Assembly: GCA_045596905.1 (NCBI GenBank)
Contig: JAZODG010000016.1
Coordinates: 1-59,184 of the forward strand
Direction of reading: 5' to 3'
DNA length: 59,184 nt
Origin: Clostridia bacterium
GTDB lineage: Bacteria > Bacillota > Clostridia > Christensenellales > UBA1242
Shown: in pieces, positions 35,117 through 55,324 of the stretch
How positions within the stretch are numbered: position 1 is the first letter of the stretch
How the letters are laid out: the number at the start of each line of letters is the position of its first letter
Notes under the pieces: model-generated
Databases searched by the model: none
The model's input: only the letters and a program-made list of their open reading frames with translations
Told to the model about the DNA's origin: nothing
Translations under genes and position numbers: made by a program

Positions 35117-35743
35117 ATGATTTCTAAAAAAGGTTTATTGATAATCTATTCGGGACCAAGTGGTGTTGGCAAGGGTACGATTAGAGAAAAAGTTTTTAAT
35201 AAGTTTAAAGACAGATTGTTCTATTCTGTTTCAATGACAACAAGAGCTCCAAGAGAAGGCGAAGTTGACGGAGTTGATTATTATTTTGTTTCAAAAGAAG
35301 AGTTTGAAAAGCAAATCGAAGCAGGAAACCTTTTAGAGTATGCTGAGTTTGTTGGAAATTATTATGGAACTCCAAAAGACAAGGTTGAAGAGAAACTTGC
35401 AGAAGGCTATGATGTTATGCTTGAAATTGAAGTTGACGGGGCGACTCAAGTTAAACAAAAGGTGAAAGATGCGATTTCAATTTTTGTTGTGCCACCATCA
35501 ATGGAAATTTTAGAAGCTAGACTTAAAGGCAGAAAAACAGAAGATGAATTTGTGATTAACAAAAGACTTGAAAAAGCCAGAAAAGAAATTGTTTTGGCAG
35601 GGCTTTATGACTATGTTGTTGTTAATGACGATATTGAAGAAGCAACTGAAGAAGTTGTGTCAATCTTAAGGTCAGGACATTTGAAAACTCCATATTCAAT
35701 TCCTGAATACTGCAAAAAACTAATGAAAAATATTAAGGGGTAG
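35117..35743 (+). CDS. gmk: Guanylate kinase
   Basis: SGPSGVGKGT, SMTTRAPREGEVDGVDYYF, GNYYGT. Confidence 0.97.
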   Translation: MISKKGLLIIYSGPSGVGKGTIREKVFNKFKDRLFYSVSMTTRAPREGEVDGVDYYFVSKEEFEKQIEAGNLLEYAEFVGNYYGTPKDKVEEKLAEGYDVMLEIEVDGATQVKQKVKDAISIFVVPPSMEILEARLKGRKTEDEFVINKRLEKARKEIVLAGLYDYVVVNDDIEEATEEVVSILRSGHLKTPYSIPEYCKKLMKNIKG

Positions 35744-35748
35744 TGATT

Positions 35749-36636
35749 ATGCCTAAAGGTAATGAAAAGTATAGTGCTTATTATAATGTTGAGCCTAAAG
35801 ATTATAGTGTTGAGTTTTCGCAATTTTTAAATAAGTTTGAAGACCCAAAAGGTAAAGTTGATGATATGGAGCTTTCTGATAAAGAACAAAAATGTTGGAC
35901 TGCTCTTAAAGAATATCAAAAGGAAAATGGTGGAGAAGAAAACACTCAAAGTGTTGATATGGATAACGTTCAGTTTAAGTATATAGTTAATCATCCAACT
36001 TATACTTCAATGATAAAGAATGTTGCTGCACTTGGAGTTGAAAATTGTGGTTATCCGTCATTTCAATTTACTGCATTTGATAAAAATAATATGGCGTGGA
36101 TTAATTCGATAAAGGCTGAGGCTAGCACATTAGGTGAGATTTTGGATAAGGCTCAAGAAGAACTTGATAAAAAAGAAGGCAAGAATAAAGACGAAGATAA
36201 TCCTGAGAATCAAAAAGAAGGCGAAAAAGAAACTGAAGGTAAAGAAGAAGGTAAGGAAGATAAACCAAAGGAAAAACAGACTGTTTGGGGTATTTTGGTT
36301 ACTAAGGCTAGAGAATCAAATGAAAAGGCTATGGGAATCTTCCATGATAAAGGTGATGCAACTTCAAGAAGAGCCTTTAAACCAGAAGTTGAGAAAGTTG
36401 ATGAAAATGAGCTTGAAAGCGATGAAATAACAGTTGAAATTGAAGAAGTTGAAAGTGAAAATCAAGGTGTTCATATTGACATGGATGTTATTGAGCAAGA
36501 AAGAGAAGCAGCTGGTTTAGTTGAAAAAGAACCAGAAACCTTGACTAATTTTAGAGCTCAAGACGAAGAAGGAATGTCACTTGAGCAAGAACAAATGGAA
36601 CAAATGTCAGAACGTGCTATGAGCATAGATGATTAA
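35749..36636 (+). CDS. Hypothetical, highly acidic protein
   Basis: Long E/K-rich ORF immediately after gmk; AAGGGG RBS. Confidence 0.7.
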   Translation: MPKGNEKYSAYYNVEPKDYSVEFSQFLNKFEDPKGKVDDMELSDKEQKCWTALKEYQKENGGEENTQSVDMDNVQFKYIVNHPTYTSMIKNVAALGVENCGYPSFQFTAFDKNNMAWINSIKAEASTLGEILDKAQEELDKKEGKNKDEDNPENQKEGEKETEGKEEGKEDKPKEKQTVWGILVTKARESNEKAMGIFHDKGDATSRRAFKPEVEKVDENELESDEITVEIEEVESENQGVHIDMDVIEQEREAAGLVEKEPETLTNFRAQDEEGMSLEQEQMEQMSERAMSIDD

Positions 36637-36649
36637 AAATAAAGGTGTC

Positions 36650-37594
36650 ATGAAGAAGTTTAAGAAGATTTTAAGTTTAATATTTATTCTTCCTGTTATG
36701 CTGTTTATGTGTGCGTGTGGGGCAAATGATGGTGATGTTGATGACGGTGCAAGTCAAACGACGCCACCTGCAACAGTAGCGCCTGAACAAGAACAACAGG
36801 AAGTTATACCATCACTATCAAATAGTGATGCCTTTTTGTTGGCGTTTAATTTGATTGAAGACTTTAAAGATGGTTATGAAGCAGATGATGAACTTAAAAA
36901 CACATATCTAGCTACCGTGGAAAACTGTGTGACAATACTAAAAACAAGTTCAGAGATTGAAGGTTTAACTTCAGGTTCTTGTGCTGCTGGAAATGATGTT
37001 GAAGTTGATGATATTGACACGGACTTAAATCATGTTGAAAAGATTTTGTATACAGATAAGTCAACGCTTGAAAAGGTTGATGTTAAGCTTCAGCTTATGT
37101 TTGGATATGATGCAAAAAATATTAACTTGTCATATAAGTTTATGTTTTTTGAAATGAGTGTGGATAAAAGAACAAACAGTTTCACATTTAACGCATACAC
37201 AGAAAACTCTATAGAAAAGAGTTCAATTGATTCAACTGGTAGTTTTGAATTTTGCAAGATAACTGGTGTGCTTGGTGATGAAGGAATGGTTGATTCAATC
37301 GATGTTTACTATTTTGACCGTAACACAAAAATTGAAGAAGTTTCAATTAATACAATAAACAACAACTATATCAAAAATTTTGAAGGTGTTCAGTATAAAA
37401 ACGGACAAGAAAATGTGTATTATTTATCATCACAAAGTGATGTAAGTATGGCAAATACATCTTCACATCAATCATTAACTGCAAGAGAAGTTGCACTTGT
37501 TTCGGTTTCTCAATATAGACAGTTTAAGTATAACGGAGCAATTGGAAGACTTCAAAACGCAAGTGAACTTTTGGTTCCTTTGATTGCTGATTGA
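36650..37594 (+). CDS. Hypothetical lipoprotein
   Basis: AAAGGTG RBS, MKKFKK signal peptide with lipobox-like MCAC. Confidence 0.7.
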   Translation: MKKFKKILSLIFILPVMLFMCACGANDGDVDDGASQTTPPATVAPEQEQQEVIPSLSNSDAFLLAFNLIEDFKDGYEADDELKNTYLATVENCVTILKTSSEIEGLTSGSCAAGNDVEVDDIDTDLNHVEKILYTDKSTLEKVDVKLQLMFGYDAKNINLSYKFMFFEMSVDKRTNSFTFNAYTENSIEKSSIDSTGSFEFCKITGVLGDEGMVDSIDVYYFDRNTKIEEVSINTINNNYIKNFEGVQYKNGQENVYYLSSQSDVSMANTSSHQSLTAREVALVSVSQYRQFKYNGAIGRLQNASELLVPLIAD

Positions 37595-37614
37595 TGATTA
37601 ATATGATTATATTC

Positions 37615-37643
37615 TTGACAAAAATTGTTTGCTGGAGTAATAT
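37615..37643 (+). promoter_or_regulatory. Sigma-A promoter for the leader peptide and MetRS-like gene
   Basis: TTGACA-N17-TAATAT; the expected +1 falls on or next to the A of the leader ATG (37650). Confidence 0.7.
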
Positions 37644-37649
37644 AGGGGT

Positions 37650-37685
37650 ATGGAAATTAGAGTAAATCAACAACAACAAAACTAG
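37650..37685 (+). CDS. Putative attenuator leader peptide MEIRVNQQQQN
   Basis: ATG GAA ATT AGA GTA AAT CAA CAA CAA CAA AAC TAG; the Gln run pairs with the antiterminator strand. Confidence 0.7.
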   Translation: MEIRVNQQQQN

Positions 37686-37775
37686 TTATGTGTGATGTTT
37701 GTCACACAAGCTTTTTGTTGCTTGTGGTTTTAACTTTTAAATCATCAAGCAATTAGACTTGATGATTTTTTATTT
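37664..37775 (+). promoter_or_regulatory. Ribosome-dependent transcription attenuator
   Basis: Segment 1 (37664-37681) pairs with 2 (37713-37730); 2 alternatively pairs with 3 (37739-37752); 3 pairs with 4 (37758-37768) to form a terminator with U tract. Confidence 0.75.
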
Positions 37776-37787
37776 AAGGAGAGTTTT

Positions 37788-39863
37788 ATGGATAATTCAA
37801 AAATGAGAGAAATCTTAGAAAGAATGAAGGCTAATCGCCCAAAATTTCCAAAGAGAGCAGTTGTTACTGGGGGTATGCCTTATGGCAATAAAGAGCTTCA
37901 TTATGGTCACGTTTGTGGTATGATGGTGTATGCTGACTTTTTTGCTAGATTCTTGAAAGATAAGCTTGGAAAAGAAAATGTTATCTTTGTTTCAGGAACC
38001 GATTGTTATGGCTCACCATCACTTGAAACATATAGAAAATGGACGCAAAATGGCTATGCTGGAACCATTGAAGATATGGTTAAAGAGTTTAATCAAAAGC
38101 ATATAAACACAATTAAAGACTATGAAATTGGTTTTGACTGGTTTGAAGGTTCTGCTATTGGTGAATCAAAAGAGATGCATAAAAAGGTTAGTGAAGAAGT
38201 TTTTGAAATGCTTTATAAAAATGGAACATTATCAAAGCTTTCAACATATCAATTTTATGATTCAAAACTTAACACATTTTTAAATGGTAGACAGGTTGTT
38301 GGGAAGTGTCCAATTGATGGTTGTAAGAGTGAAAAAGGATATGCTGATGAATGCGACCTTGGACATCAATATTTGCCAGAACAATTGATTGACCCAGTGT
38401 CAACACTTTCAGGAACAAAGCCAGAACTTAAAAAGATTGAAAACTGGTATTTCAATTTGCAAAACTACACAGACCTTTTGAAAGAATGGATTGATAAGCT
38501 TGATAAAGAAACACCAACAAGAGATTTCGTTTTGAAAGAAATCAAAGAGTTTTTGAAAAAGCCTGAAATCTATATTAAAAAAGATTATATGGAAGCGTTT
38601 GAAAAAATTGAAAATGAACTTCCACATTTTGAAAAGGTTGAAGATAAGAGCAAGGCAAGTTTTGTTATTATTTTTGATAGTTTAGCAGATAGAGAAAAAG
38701 CTTGTGAAATATTGTCAGGCAAAGGAACACCAGAGTGGGAAAAGAGTGAAGTGGCTCCAGAAGATAAAGTGGAAGCAACAACAACTGGTGCAATAAGATA
38801 TAGAACAGGAAAAACTCTTGTTCCATTCAGACTTTCAGGTAATATTTCATGGGGTGTGCCAGTTCCAGAAAAAGAAGGTCTTGATGGACTCACATTCTAT
38901 TGTTGGCCAGAATCTCTCTGGGCGCCAATTTCATTTACAAGAACATATTTAAAACATTATGGTTATGATGATGAAGAATGGAAAAAATACTGGTGCAGTA
39001 AAGATGCAAAAGTTTACCAAGTTCTTGGTGAAGATAATATTTATTTCTATGGTCCTGCGCAACATGCAATGTGGCTTGCAACTCAAAAAGGTGAGCCAAC
39101 AGTTGATGTTCCAGAAGGTGATTTGCAAATCAGTCAACTCATAGTTAACAAACATTCATTGTTTATGGGTAACAAGGCAAGTTCATCAGGTAGCATTAAG
39201 CCACCAATGGCAGATGAACTTTTGAATCATTATACACATGAACAACTACGTGCACACTTCTTGGCACTTAGTGTTGGAAATACATCATCATCATTTAATC
39301 CAAAAGTTTATAATCCAGATGCTGATCCAAATGAAGTTGATCCAGTTGTTAAAGATGGAAACCTTTTAACAAATGTTTATAACAGAGCACTTCGTACAAT
39401 TTTCTATACATGGCAAAAGGACTTTGATGGAGTTGTTCCATATGGTGAAGTTGCAGAAGAAATTTTAAACGAATGTGAAATGTCAATTTTGAAGTTTGAA
39501 AAATGTATGATGGAAAACAAGTTCCATATGTGTATGTATGAACTTGATAGTTTCCTTAGAAACATTAACAAATATTGGACAAAGAATTTTGTTCAAGATG
39601 ACAAAGAGAAAGAAAAAGAGTGTATTGTTAACACTCTTCACTACATTAAAGTTGCTATGGTTATGCTCCACTCAGTTGCTCCAAAAGGTATTGAAAACTT
39701 GGCTGAATATCTTGGTGTTGATGAGTCAATTTTTAACTGGGATAGATGCAATGAAGTTATCTATAACTGGTTTGAATCAAAAGAAAATCATAAACCAAAA
39801 TTTATTGAAGCTAAATTTGACTTTTTTAAAAAGCACCCAAGTCAATTTGAAAATAATGATTAA
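37788..39863 (+). CDS. MetRS-fold class I aminoacyl-tRNA synthetase paralogue (specificity uncertain)
   Basis: PYGN..LHYGH (HIGH), Zn knuckle CPIDGC...EC, WGVPVP, KASSS (KMSKS-like), helical anticodon domain; Met-pocket residues altered. Confidence 0.85.
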   Translation: MDNSKMREILERMKANRPKFPKRAVVTGGMPYGNKELHYGHVCGMMVYADFFARFLKDKLGKENVIFVSGTDCYGSPSLETYRKWTQNGYAGTIEDMVKEFNQKHINTIKDYEIGFDWFEGSAIGESKEMHKKVSEEVFEMLYKNGTLSKLSTYQFYDSKLNTFLNGRQVVGKCPIDGCKSEKGYADECDLGHQYLPEQLIDPVSTLSGTKPELKKIENWYFNLQNYTDLLKEWIDKLDKETPTRDFVLKEIKEFLKKPEIYIKKDYMEAFEKIENELPHFEKVEDKSKASFVIIFDSLADREKACEILSGKGTPEWEKSEVAPEDKVEATTTGAIRYRTGKTLVPFRLSGNISWGVPVPEKEGLDGLTFYCWPESLWAPISFTRTYLKHYGYDDEEWKKYWCSKDAKVYQVLGEDNIYFYGPAQHAMWLATQKGEPTVDVPEGDLQISQLIVNKHSLFMGNKASSSGSIKPPMADELLNHYTHEQLRAHFLALSVGNTSSSFNPKVYNPDADPNEVDPVVKDGNLLTNVYNRALRTIFYTWQKDFDGVVPYGEVAEEILNECEMSILKFEKCMMENKFHMCMYELDSFLRNINKYWTKNFVQDDKEKEKECIVNTLHYIKVAMVMLHSVAPKGIENLAEYLGVDESIFNWDRCNEVIYNWFESKENHKPKFIEAKFDFFKKHPSQFENND

Positions 39864-42245: not shown

Positions 42246-42322
42246 CGGGGTATAGCGCAGTTTGGTAGCGCGCGCGGTTTGGGTCCGTGAGGTCGTGAGT
42301 TCGAGTCTCGCTACCCCGACCA
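42246..42322 (+). tRNA. tRNA-Pro (TGG)
   Basis: Cloverleaf, loop TT-TGG-GT, CCA encoded. Confidence 0.95.
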
Positions 42323-42342
42323 TAGTTGCAATCAAAATAATT

Positions 42343-42419
42343 GGGCCTTTAGCTCAGTTGGTTAGAGCGACCGGCTCATAACCGGTTGGTCCGCGGTTCA
42401 AGTCCGTGAAGGCCCACCA
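42343..42419 (+). tRNA. tRNA-Ile2 (CAT, lysidine type)
   Basis: CAT anticodon with GGGCCTT acceptor typical of Ile2 rather than Met or fMet. Confidence 0.8.
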
Positions 42420-42440
42420 AACATTTTAATAAGCCTATTT

Positions 42441-42517
42441 GGCCCGGTAGCTCAGTTGGTTAGAGCGCCAGCCTGTCACGCTGGAGGTCGACGGTTCGAG
42501 CCCGTTTCGGGTCGCCA
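42441..42517 (+). tRNA. tRNA-Asp (GTC)
   Basis: Loop CT-GTC-AC, GCCA end. Confidence 0.95.
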
Positions 42518-42554
42518 TATTGTTTTCACTTATTTCAATGAAAAAAATAAGTAT

Positions 42555-42630
42555 GCCTCGGTAGCTCAGTCGGTAGAGCATGAGACTGAAAATCTCAGTG
42601 TCGGTGGTTCGATTCCGCCCCGCGGCACCA
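42555..42630 (+). tRNA. tRNA-Phe (GAA)
   Basis: Loop CT-GAA-AA, ACCA end. Confidence 0.95.
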
Positions 42631-42634
42631 AGAT

Positions 42635-42709
42635 GCTGGTGTGGCTCAATGGTAGAGCAGCTGATTTGTAATCAGCCGGTTGTTGGTTCGATTCCGACCA
42701 CCAGCTCCA
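42635..42709 (+). tRNA. tRNA-Thr (TGT)
   Basis: Loop TT-TGT-AA, TCCA end. Confidence 0.95.
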
Positions 42710-42771
42710 TAATGTTACTTTTAAGCAAGTGAGAAATCACTTGCTTAAAAAAAACATAAAAATCTTAATAT

Positions 42772-42857
42772 GGGAGGATTGCAGAGCGGCCAAATGCAAC
42801 GGACTGTAAATCCGTCGTCTTTCGACTTCAGTGGTTCGAATCCACTTCCTCCCACCA
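42772..42857 (+). tRNA. tRNA-Tyr (GTA)
   Basis: Loop CT-GTA-AA, long variable arm, ACCA end. Confidence 0.95.
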
Positions 42858-55074: not shown

Positions 55075-55087
55075 TTGGCTATGTTTT

Positions 55088-55324
55088 AAAAGCTATGAAG
55101 GTGATTTAGTAGTTTGCAGGAAAGTTTTAGAGAGTCTTGTCTAGGCTGGAAACAAGATAACGGAACTGCAGATGAATTTCGGCACCGGAGCTGGATATAG
55201 AAATATATTTCGCGATAAAGCTGCGTTATGCTTAAATAAGGTGACAAAAATTTGTCATAAAATAAGGTGGTACCACGCAAATCTCTCAGCGTCCTTATGA
55301 TTAAGGACATGGGAGATTTTTTAT
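55088..55324 (+). ncRNA. T-box riboswitch (Phe specifier UUC)
   Basis: AGTA, AGAGA and GGCTGGAA stem I elements, GAAT-TTC specifier at 55178-55180, T-box AAGGTGGTACCACG at 55264-55277, terminator ending GGGAGATTTTTT. Confidence 0.92.

Follow-up and report, generated by a model that had tools for sequence, protein, structure and literature searches.

A putative glutamine-sensing attenuator upstream of a MetRS-like gene points to a candidate third route to Gln-tRNA(Gln) in Clostridia

Introduction

A 59,184-nucleotide stretch of DNA from a Clostridia bacterium (Bacillota; Clostridia; Christensenellales; UBA1242; GenBank assembly GCA_045596905.1, contig JAZODG010000016.1), analysed here at its full length and called the window below, carries a gene for a protein of the methionyl-tRNA synthetase (MetRS) family behind a very short open reading frame (ORF) that contains four tandem glutamine codons. 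A reading made from the sequence alone (the sequence-only reading) had taken this arrangement for a leader-peptide attenuator induced when Gln-tRNA(Gln) is scarce, which raises a simple question: why should a MetRS-like gene answer to the charging of a glutamine tRNA, and what does its product do?

In the classical trp, his and pheST attenuators of Proteobacteria, a short ORF with tandem codons is combined with segments that pair as 1:2, 2:3 and 3:4 and with a terminator, pheST being a synthetase operon placed under its cognate codons. We know of no attenuator of this kind described for glutamine codons. Textbook accounts hold, to our knowledge, two routes to Gln-tRNA(Gln): a glutaminyl-tRNA synthetase (GlnRS), or a glutamyl-tRNA synthetase (GluRS) followed by an amidotransferase. 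The accessible parts of two surveys (PMC3927822, PMC5388404) give the same two routes and, with those of a third source (PMC2494555), say that GatCAB serves bacteria that have no GlnRS and name no class of bacteria lacking both. A literature search, with most subscription journals and the T-box specifier tables outside its reach, found no description of a MetRS-derived GlnRS, of a Gln-codon attenuator or of bacteria without both GlnRS and GatCAB. From the comparisons reported below we consider it likely that the element is a ribosome-mediated transcription attenuator sensing Gln-tRNA(Gln) and that the gene under its control encodes a glutaminyl-tRNA synthetase of MetRS fold.

Results

A leader ORF with tandem glutamine codons and alternative RNA folds

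The promoter TTGACA-N17-TAATAT, the leader ORF MEIRVNQQQQN*, the segment complementary to its CAA run and the U-tailed terminator were all found where the sequence-only reading had placed them (Table 1). The promoter scan gave the site at 37615-37643 a score of 10 of 12, the upstream ORF (uORF) reads ATG GAA ATT AGA GTA AAT CAA CAA CAA CAA AAC TAG, and the complementary segment, TTTTGTTGCTTGTGGTTT, was read directly at 37713-37730. An unconstrained fold of 37650-37775 consisted of a 1:2 hairpin (37659-37737), which joins the CAA run to 37712-37737 in the minimum-free-energy (MFE) structure and encloses a nested hairpin at 37689-37708, and of the 3:4 terminator. At -38.3 kcal/mol this fold was more stable than any of 200 shuffled sequences (-21.2 +/- 3.3 kcal/mol; z = -5.11). 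The terminator pairs AAATCATCAAG (37739-37749) with CTTGATGATTT (37758-37768) in an 11-bp stem followed by a T run to 37771, and a terminator scan recovered the same hairpin at 37739-37768. In the competing antiterminator, GTTGCTTG (37717-37724) pairs with CAAGCAAT (37746-37753), and the pairing can be extended. The nested hairpin is possibly a pause hairpin.

Table 1. Features of the leader and of the gene downstream (positions in the window)
Feature	Position	Strand	Basis and remarks
-35 box TTGACA	37615-37620	+	sequence reading and promoter scan
-10 box TAATAT	37638-37643	+	17-nt spacer from -35 box; 6 nt before ATG; transcription start placed from this geometry
Leader ORF MEIRVNQQQQN*	37650-37685	+	11 codons; probably leaderless; uORFs in 20/20 genus genomes
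Four tandem CAA (Gln) codons	37668-37679	+	putative sensor; core of segment 1
Segment 1, 5' strand of anti-antiterminator	37659-37682	+	MFE fold, pair counts
Nested hairpin TGTGTGAT/GTCACACA, then U-rich stretch	37689-37708	+	fold and compensatory changes; candidate pause hairpin
Segment 2, core GTTGCTTG at 37717-37724	37712-37737	+	partner of segment 1 or segment 3
Segment 3, terminator 5' arm AAATCATCAAG and loop bases CAAT	37739-37753	+	completes antiterminator partner CAAGCAAT
Segment 4, terminator 3' arm CTTGATGATTT and T run	37758-37771	+	fold, terminator scan
Shine-Dalgarno AAGGAGAG of synthetase gene	37776-37783	+	read from sequence
MetRS-fold class I synthetase paralog, 691 aa, candidate glutaminyl-tRNA synthetase	37788-39863	+	Pfam, NCBIfam, tree, AF2 model

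Of the 20 other genus genomes, 19 have an orthologue of the 691-residue protein (79-94% identity), the single miss being an 80%-complete genome, and none was found in the four other genera of the same family that were searched. We compared 320 nt upstream of the gene in 20 genus genomes, the source genome included. Every leader has the order TTGACA, 17-18 nt, -10 hexamer, 6-7 nt and ATG, at a constant distance from TTGACA to the uORF ATG (two leaders, L012 and L022, were judged by eye). The uORF is 10-13 codons long and always runs in frame into a glutamine run of three codons (16 genomes) or four (4 genomes), two genomes using CAG CAA CAA. Its N-terminal codons are free to vary (MEIRVN, MKNIFVKG, MVIMFKNA, MIKLVKA and others) and the spacing from ATG to the first glutamine codon is 18, 21 or 24 nt in all 20 despite this variation; the stop codon lies one codon past the run in 19 and immediately after it in one. 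CAA is also the dominant glutamine codon of the source genome (5527 CAA vs 869 CAG in long ORFs). The proximity of the ATG to the -10 box and the frame kept up to the glutamine run, both in 20 of 20 leaders, support the claim that the leader peptide is translated, probably from a leaderless transcript.

The RNA structure is conserved along with the uORF. Aligning the 20 leaders gave 80.7% paired cells for the proposed structure, vs 36-47% when the partners are slid by 1-3 columns, and both sides have changed at 17 pairs of the structure, a count matched by 1 of 500 shuffles. The terminator (91.8% of cells paired) shows compensatory changes at 5 of its 11 pairs and the nested hairpin at three (alignment columns 50-64, 51-63 and 52-62). 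Nine core pairs of the 1:2 hairpin, between the glutamine codons and TTGTTGCTTG, are kept in all 20 leaders; TTTTGTTGCTTGT in segment 2 is invariant; and the antiterminator core, GTTGCTTG with CAAGCAAC/T, is paired in 160 of 160 cells. The terminator-loop bases CAAC/CAAT are conserved although the terminator can dispense with them, which argues for the alternative 2:3 pairing. When the uORF was left free, forcing the antiterminator cost 3-15 kcal/mol relative to the 1:2 plus 3:4 fold across the 20 leaders. When the uORF was blocked up to its stop codon, the antiterminator equalled the best fold in 6 of 20 and, in the window, came within 0.5 kcal/mol of the terminator fold. The full 1:2 / 2:3 / 3:4 layout described in the sequence-only reading could be folded in both conformations.

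Among 80 loci of the same protein family from GTDB species representatives (L039-L118), at least three tandem glutamine codons in a leader-like position were found only in L039-L041, which are the same genomes as L023-L025; the attenuator is thus genus-specific. CAACAGCAA in L070, 338 nt upstream of the gene, sits in coding sequence and is not a Gln leader. Rfam returned no match in 37500-37900, at the gathering score or at E <= 10, which rules out a T-box (RF00230) or a known riboswitch for the window element. Two co-directional ORFs (297 and 321 aa; 35743-37594), neither with a Pfam or NCBIfam match, adjoin the leader on its upstream side, and no terminator is predicted from the second of them to the leader promoter. 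A purine stretch (GGAG, GGGG, GAGAG or GTG; 37631-37637 in the window) abuts the -10 hexamer in all 20 leaders, L010-L028 included, 12-13 nt before the ATG.

A MetRS paralog distinct from the housekeeping enzyme

The only domain that Pfam found in the 691-residue protein is PF09334, the MetRS catalytic family (213.6 bits). All NCBIfam MetRS equivalogs were missed, the best being NF001100 (237 bits vs a cut-off of 587) and TIGR00398 scoring 187.5 vs 336. A regular MetRS is encoded on contig C47 of the source genome, G000 (726 bits vs a cut-off of 598), and this, with the sub-cut-off scores, indicates that the window gene is not the housekeeping MetRS, in line with the sequence-only reading, which had doubted the MetRS label; the comparative evidence given below points to glutamine instead. 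Pfam and NCBIfam returned MetRS-family matches only, with no homology to the catalytic domain of GluRS and GlnRS (TIGR00440 / PF00749), and Pfam found no cupin domain.

In a quick tree the family forms a single clade (SH-aLRT 100) on a stem of 1.24 changes per column. Its members keep the HYGH motif, and KMSKS has become KASSS or KAASS in each of the 14 diverse members that were inspected. The AF2 model (pLDDT 88, pTM 0.89, disorder only at 313-334) has MetRS structures as its best matches (TM to target 0.76-0.85), and the profile alignment spans the MetRS anticodon-binding domain, which is complete. Positions 13, 297 and 301 of E. coli MetRS presumably line the methionine pocket, as titles of mutant structures suggest. 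They correspond here to M30, N417 and Y421 (read through the 8bru L13M,I297C row of the profile alignment), and a three-residue insert creates the family motif WPESLW. In a PDB sequence search, the MetRS-like structures 9l8v and 9vq4 matched at E about 1e-15 vs 1e-71 for Pyrococcus MetRS. By its sequence, then, the protein is neither a functional-MetRS equivalog nor a canonical GlnRS nor a MetRS-like domain of the hydrazine-synthetase type. The sister of the family is a small group of KMSKS-bearing proteins (P0149, P0163, P0171 and P0185) at 27-31% identity, which has the inserted domain and the DN..FY motif in common with it, N and Y standing at E. coli positions 297 and 301. This group likewise scores under the MetRS equivalog cut-offs (311-391 vs 587) and may have an amino-acid specificity other than methionine.

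Glutamine T-boxes and a glnS-like position in other lineages

Outside the genus the paralog is associated with another type of regulatory element. The register of T-box specifier loops was calibrated on the only T-box of the window (55086-55299, 107 bits), which precedes pheST as previously noted and reads GAA-U-UUC-G (Phe). T-boxes with a Gln specifier were found directly upstream of the paralog at 10 loci, five with CAG and five with CAA. Four of these belong to the 80 public loci (Rfam matches in L048, L055, L062 and L072, of which L055 and L072 are monocistronic), with specifiers reading GAA-CAG-G in three and GAA-CAG-U in one. The other six come from a class-wide sample described below, in which 640 nt upstream of the gene were taken from 22 carriers: 6 of the 20 scanned with Rfam have a T-box on the gene strand (76-103 bits; three reach the gathering score), every one in the register GAA-N-codon-G, with CAA five times and CAG once, and the remaining two, checked by regular expression, show no T-box. 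Eight of the 10 Gln T-boxes carry a UGGC bulge, which pairs with a G73 discriminator. In the source genome both tRNA(Gln) have U1-A72 and G73, and tRNA(Met), tRNA(fMet), tRNA(Ile-CAU) and tRNA(Glu) have A73; the bulge fits the G73 of tRNA(Gln). A looser T-box expression that admits GGTGGCAAC cores matched 7 of the 74 public loci with at least 300 nt upstream.

Two loci depart from this pattern: in L102 (1795-5636) and L112 (2983-6869) the paralog and aspS (725 and 728 bits) form an operon behind a short T-box with the specifier GAC (Asp), which the aspS gene directly downstream explains as that of a two-synthetase operon. This T-box has no stem II and scores below the Rfam gathering score, and the two genomes, of about 1 Mb, lack GlnRS and GatB. 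In L062 about 310 nt (2651-2964) with no evident ORF separate the Gln T-box terminator from the start of the paralog. Four genomes (G220, G231, G247 with L048, and G248 with L062) encode a canonical GlnRS in addition to the paralog, and in all four the paralog lies behind a Gln-specifier T-box; there it may be an inducible second GlnRS.

The gene neighbourhood points the same way. In 9 of 22 sampled carriers the gene immediately upstream, on the same strand, is that of GluRS (gltX). Among the 80 public loci, 22 have gltX no more than 3 kb away, those of Ruminococcus flavefaciens and Ruminococcus albus among them. In related genomes that have GlnRS, gltX and the canonical glnS are neighbours. 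On the most economical reading, the charging of tRNA(Gln) would be sensed for one protein family in two unrelated ways, by ribosomes that read CAA codons in this genus and by CAA- or CAG-specifier T-boxes elsewhere.

The paralog occurs where the known routes to Gln-tRNA(Gln) are missing

The source genome (1.13 Mb in 48 contigs, 92.7% complete) has tRNA(Gln) with CUG and UUG anticodons, three CAU tRNAs, an AsnRS and one enzyme of the GluRS/GlnRS family, which is of GluRS type (TIGR00464 288 bits, glnS 30 bits). The other genomes of the genus each have a single PF00749 match as well, the type having been assigned for that of the source genome. No GlnRS, gatB or gatA was found in this 92.7%-complete genome, nor any GatB/GatE-like match at E <= 0.001. 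The paralog is therein most likely the only visible route to Gln-tRNA(Gln), as far as gene content can tell. The GluRS itself (C40, about 21.0-22.6 kb, minus strand) is long, at 545 aa, and sits at the TIGR00464 cut-off (288 vs 290); the long type also occurs beside the paralog in R. flavefaciens and R. albus (L063 1052-2740; L070 104-2089), and the GluRS of Ruminococcus sp. YRD2003 is standard (482 aa, 491 bits).

Within the genus, gatA and gatB occur together in 14 of 21 genomes and are missing in 7, including a 4-contig, 96%-complete genome and a 10-contig, 94%-complete one. In several of the genomes that have them, an archaeal-type gene resembling AspRS (435-456 aa, about 220 bits to asnS) immediately precedes gatCAB, and AsnRS is present as well (G013 C4 29137-33538; G009 C30 60323-64785; G002 C189; G007 C43). 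This position suggests that GatCAB serves tRNA-dependent asparagine synthesis there.

For a wider view we used 201 evenly sampled Clostridia genomes, at least 90% complete, 200 of which were scored for all three genes (family profile E <= 1e-100, glnS E <= 1e-60, gatB E <= 1e-40; Table 2). GlnRS was found in 2 of 23 carriers of the paralog vs 129 of 177 non-carriers. The six genomes without both GlnRS and GatB are all carriers (92.7-100% complete), and no non-carrier among the 177 is in this state. The exchange recurs within single genera: in one (g22), the paralog stands without GlnRS in two genomes and GlnRS without the paralog in two more, and in another (g45) one genome has the paralog and two have GlnRS. 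Two cultured strains, Ruminococcus albus 8 and Ruminococcus sp. YRD2003, have a regular MetRS, the paralog and one GluRS; neither a second PF00749 enzyme nor GlnRS nor a gatB match was seen in them. In R. flavefaciens ATCC 19208, gatB is present. Genomes reached through loci (G041-G045, G245-G249) came with no completeness figure.

Table 2. Co-occurrence of the paralog, GlnRS and GatB in the class sample
Paralog	GlnRS	GatB	Genomes	Remarks
absent	present	absent	49	
absent	present	present	80	
absent	absent	present	48	
absent	absent	absent	0	
present	absent	absent	6	
present	absent	present	15	
present	present	absent	1	
present	present	present	1	520 contigs; paralog with internal TGA

Discussion

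A Gln leader in one genus, Gln T-boxes in other lineages, a glnS-like position beside gltX and presence where the known routes are missing together make a GlnRS of MetRS ancestry the most economical reading. As judged from these comparative data, the MetRS-derived clade most likely charges tRNA(Gln) directly with glutamine. With moderate confidence, we further propose that it constitutes a third, unrecognised route to Gln-tRNA(Gln), a direct GlnRS that arose from MetRS and replaced glnS beside gltX repeatedly in Clostridia. As to the leader, it has the sequence-level properties of the leader-peptide attenuator class: a tandem-codon ORF, an intrinsic terminator, and mutually exclusive 1:2 and 2:3 pairings with segment 1 inside the ORF. 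The sensed species named by the sequence-only reading, Gln-tRNA(Gln), is borne out by the three or four glutamine codons invariably present in the 20 leaders and by the CAA- and CAG-specifier T-boxes at 10 loci elsewhere; the Gln uORF and the structure persist upstream of homologues, with covarying stems.

The following mechanism may be suggested. Transcription would start at or beside the A of the uORF ATG, and a ribosome would translate the 11-codon leader. When Gln-tRNA(Gln) is scarce, the ribosome would stall within segment 1 itself, on the CAA run, leaving segment 2 (GTTGCTTG) free to pair with segment 3 (CAAGCAAT) once this has been made; the terminator would be blocked and RNA polymerase would read into the gene. 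When Gln-tRNA(Gln) is plentiful, or when the leader is not translated, 1:2 pairing would leave the 3:4 terminator to end transcription. A ribosome that has moved on to the stop would unpair the nested hairpin at its 5' arm, so that CACAAGC could capture segment 2 and favour termination; in the trp leader, similarly, segment 2 is masked by a ribosome at the stop. On the most economical reading the element would thus raise production of the synthetase when Gln-tRNA(Gln) is low.

With the trp, his and pheST attenuators the leader shares a short ORF with tandem codons, four alternative segments and an intrinsic terminator before the gene. It differs from them in that it would sense glutamine, apparently without a 5' untranslated region, that its codons are themselves a pairing strand, with the stop one codon later, and that its host belongs to a Clostridia lineage, in which synthetase genes usually use T-boxes. 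Like a T-box leader (RF00230), it would sense tRNA charging and act by antitermination before a synthetase gene; unlike a T-box, which binds uncharged tRNA directly, it would sense charged tRNA through the ribosome. A further parallel is found in mycobacteria, where, according to the part of the report available (10.1101/834739), leaderless polycysteine short ORFs attenuate cysteine operons: both are short ORFs, probably leaderless in the present case, rich in the codons of one amino acid, differing in phylum, in amino acid and in target, which is a synthetase here and biosynthesis genes there. The proposed product of the enzyme, Gln-tRNA(Gln), is that of canonical GlnRS (TIGR00440) and of the GluRS plus GatCAB route, and adjacency to gltX is shared with glnS; canonical GlnRS derives from GluRS (PF00749), whereas the window protein derives from the MetRS family (PF09334). 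That a MetRS fold can be re-tuned to another amino acid, as we propose here, is indicated by the MetRS-like domains of hydrazine synthetases (PyrN, PDB 9l8v), whose specificity has shifted from methionine to others including glutamate, as far as the accessible part of the report goes (PMC12376268). Those domains are, by the same partial source, fused to cupins and serve N-N bond formation in natural products, whereas the window protein has no cupin and a complete anticodon-binding domain.

Several observations weigh against this combined reading. (i), The Fisher test on the class sample (p = 2.7e-9) counts related genomes separately, and because kin are not independent it overstates the support and is indicative only. 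(ii), GatB is present in 15 of the 23 class-sample carriers and GlnRS in 2, and G247 and G248 have GlnRS, GluRS, GatB and the paralog together; in carriers that keep GatB or GlnRS the enzyme need not be the only route and might do something else. (iii), The Asp T-boxes of L102 and L112 show that an element upstream of the paralog can name something other than its substrate, and neither a T-box core nor a Gln leader was found at 67 of the 74 public loci for which 300 nt or more of upstream sequence were available. (iv), The family has lost the second KMSKS lysine, which is ordinarily a catalytic residue; because of this loss the enzyme may, like GlnRS, GluRS and ArgRS, need tRNA for amino-acid activation. 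(v), With the uORF blocked, the antiterminator lies 0.5-6.3 kcal/mol above the optimum in 14 of 20 leaders, and in the source genome the MFE structure is then a small hairpin CACAAGC/GCTTGTG plus the terminator (-23.7 vs -23.2 kcal/mol for the antiterminator). The choice between folds must therefore be kinetic, segment 3 being transcribed ahead of segment 4. (vi), The conserved GRG purine stretch could be a distant Shine-Dalgarno sequence on transcripts reading through from the gene ending at 37594, or a promoter element, so that leaderless initiation is probable rather than certain.

The alternative that fares best accepts the attenuator as described and has the enzyme place glutamate or another precursor on tRNA(Gln), like the GluRS2 of Helicobacter, a second enzyme finishing the product. 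We regard it as unlikely. The frequent retention of GatB, in the class-sample carriers as in 14 of 21 genus genomes, would suit it, as would the existence of a MetRS-like domain with a glutamyl-adenylate analogue (PDB 9l8v, known to us from a partial record). Six carriers of 92.7-100% completeness do without GatB, however; the source genome also lacks GatA and any GatB/GatE-like match at the threshold given, and the place of gatCAB behind the archaeal-type AspRS-like gene points to its use for asparagine. A GluRS2-like role is possible where GatCAB exists, but it fails to explain the six genomes that have none.

A different objection concerns the leader, which might be an untranslated RNA switch or a constitutive terminator with its glutamine codons conserved merely as a hairpin strand. 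The CAA run and its partner are invariant and hence pair without covariation, as such a view would have it. It is nonetheless quite unlikely: it leaves aside the ATG held at 6-7 nt from the -10 box and the ATG-to-Gln distances of 18, 21 or 24 nt in all 20 leaders despite free sequence change, the in-frame stop within one codon of the run, the loop bases completing CAAGCAAC that are conserved for the alternative pairing, the lack of any Rfam riboswitch match, and the Gln T-boxes at the equivalent position in other lineages. That the protein is a second, divergent MetRS (perhaps resistant to inhibitors or induced by stress) or a tRNA-independent enzyme that activates amino acids, its link to glutamine being regulatory only, is very improbable: its fold and best sequence matches are indeed those of MetRS, and resistant synthetase paralogs are well known (PMC5388404, in part) as are MetRS-like domains in hydrazine synthetases that do not use methionine (PMC12376268, in part), but it scores far under every MetRS equivalog cut-off, has M30, N417 and Y421 at positions 13, 297 and 301, lacks a cupin, keeps the full anticodon-binding domain, and would leave the GlnRS/GatB complementarity, the Gln T-boxes and the gltX adjacency unexplained.

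If the window protein and its relatives are glutaminyl-tRNA synthetases, a synthetase for one of the standard amino acids would have originated anew, a case comparable in kind to class I LysRS. Neither known route was seen in six of the 200 Clostridia sampled or in two cultured Ruminococcus strains, and every one of them carries the MetRS-like gene; in such species without GlnRS and GatCAB, the cultured Ruminococcus albus among them, this enzyme would be the sole route to Gln-tRNA(Gln). The labels 'methionine--tRNA ligase' and 'class I tRNA ligase family protein' would have to be corrected in hundreds of gut and rumen genomes, and the family would offer a natural case of a methionine pocket and a reader of CAU anticodons re-tuned to glutamine and to CUG/UUG. 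The leader of the window would be the first glutamine-specific leader-peptide attenuator, extending this type of control to glutamine and to a synthetase gene of Clostridia, and, with the Gln T-boxes, it would provide a clean regulatory label of the substrate of this enzyme.

Other features of the window

Downstream of the synthetase gene, the segment 40487-42118 holds a perfect promoter, TTGACA-18-TATAAT (12 of 12), and behind it the gene for a 523-aa ABC-F family ATPase (NF011646 592 bits, below the cut-off of 762). Six tRNA genes are clustered at 42246-42857; they are those for Pro, Met, Asp, Phe, Thr and Tyr.

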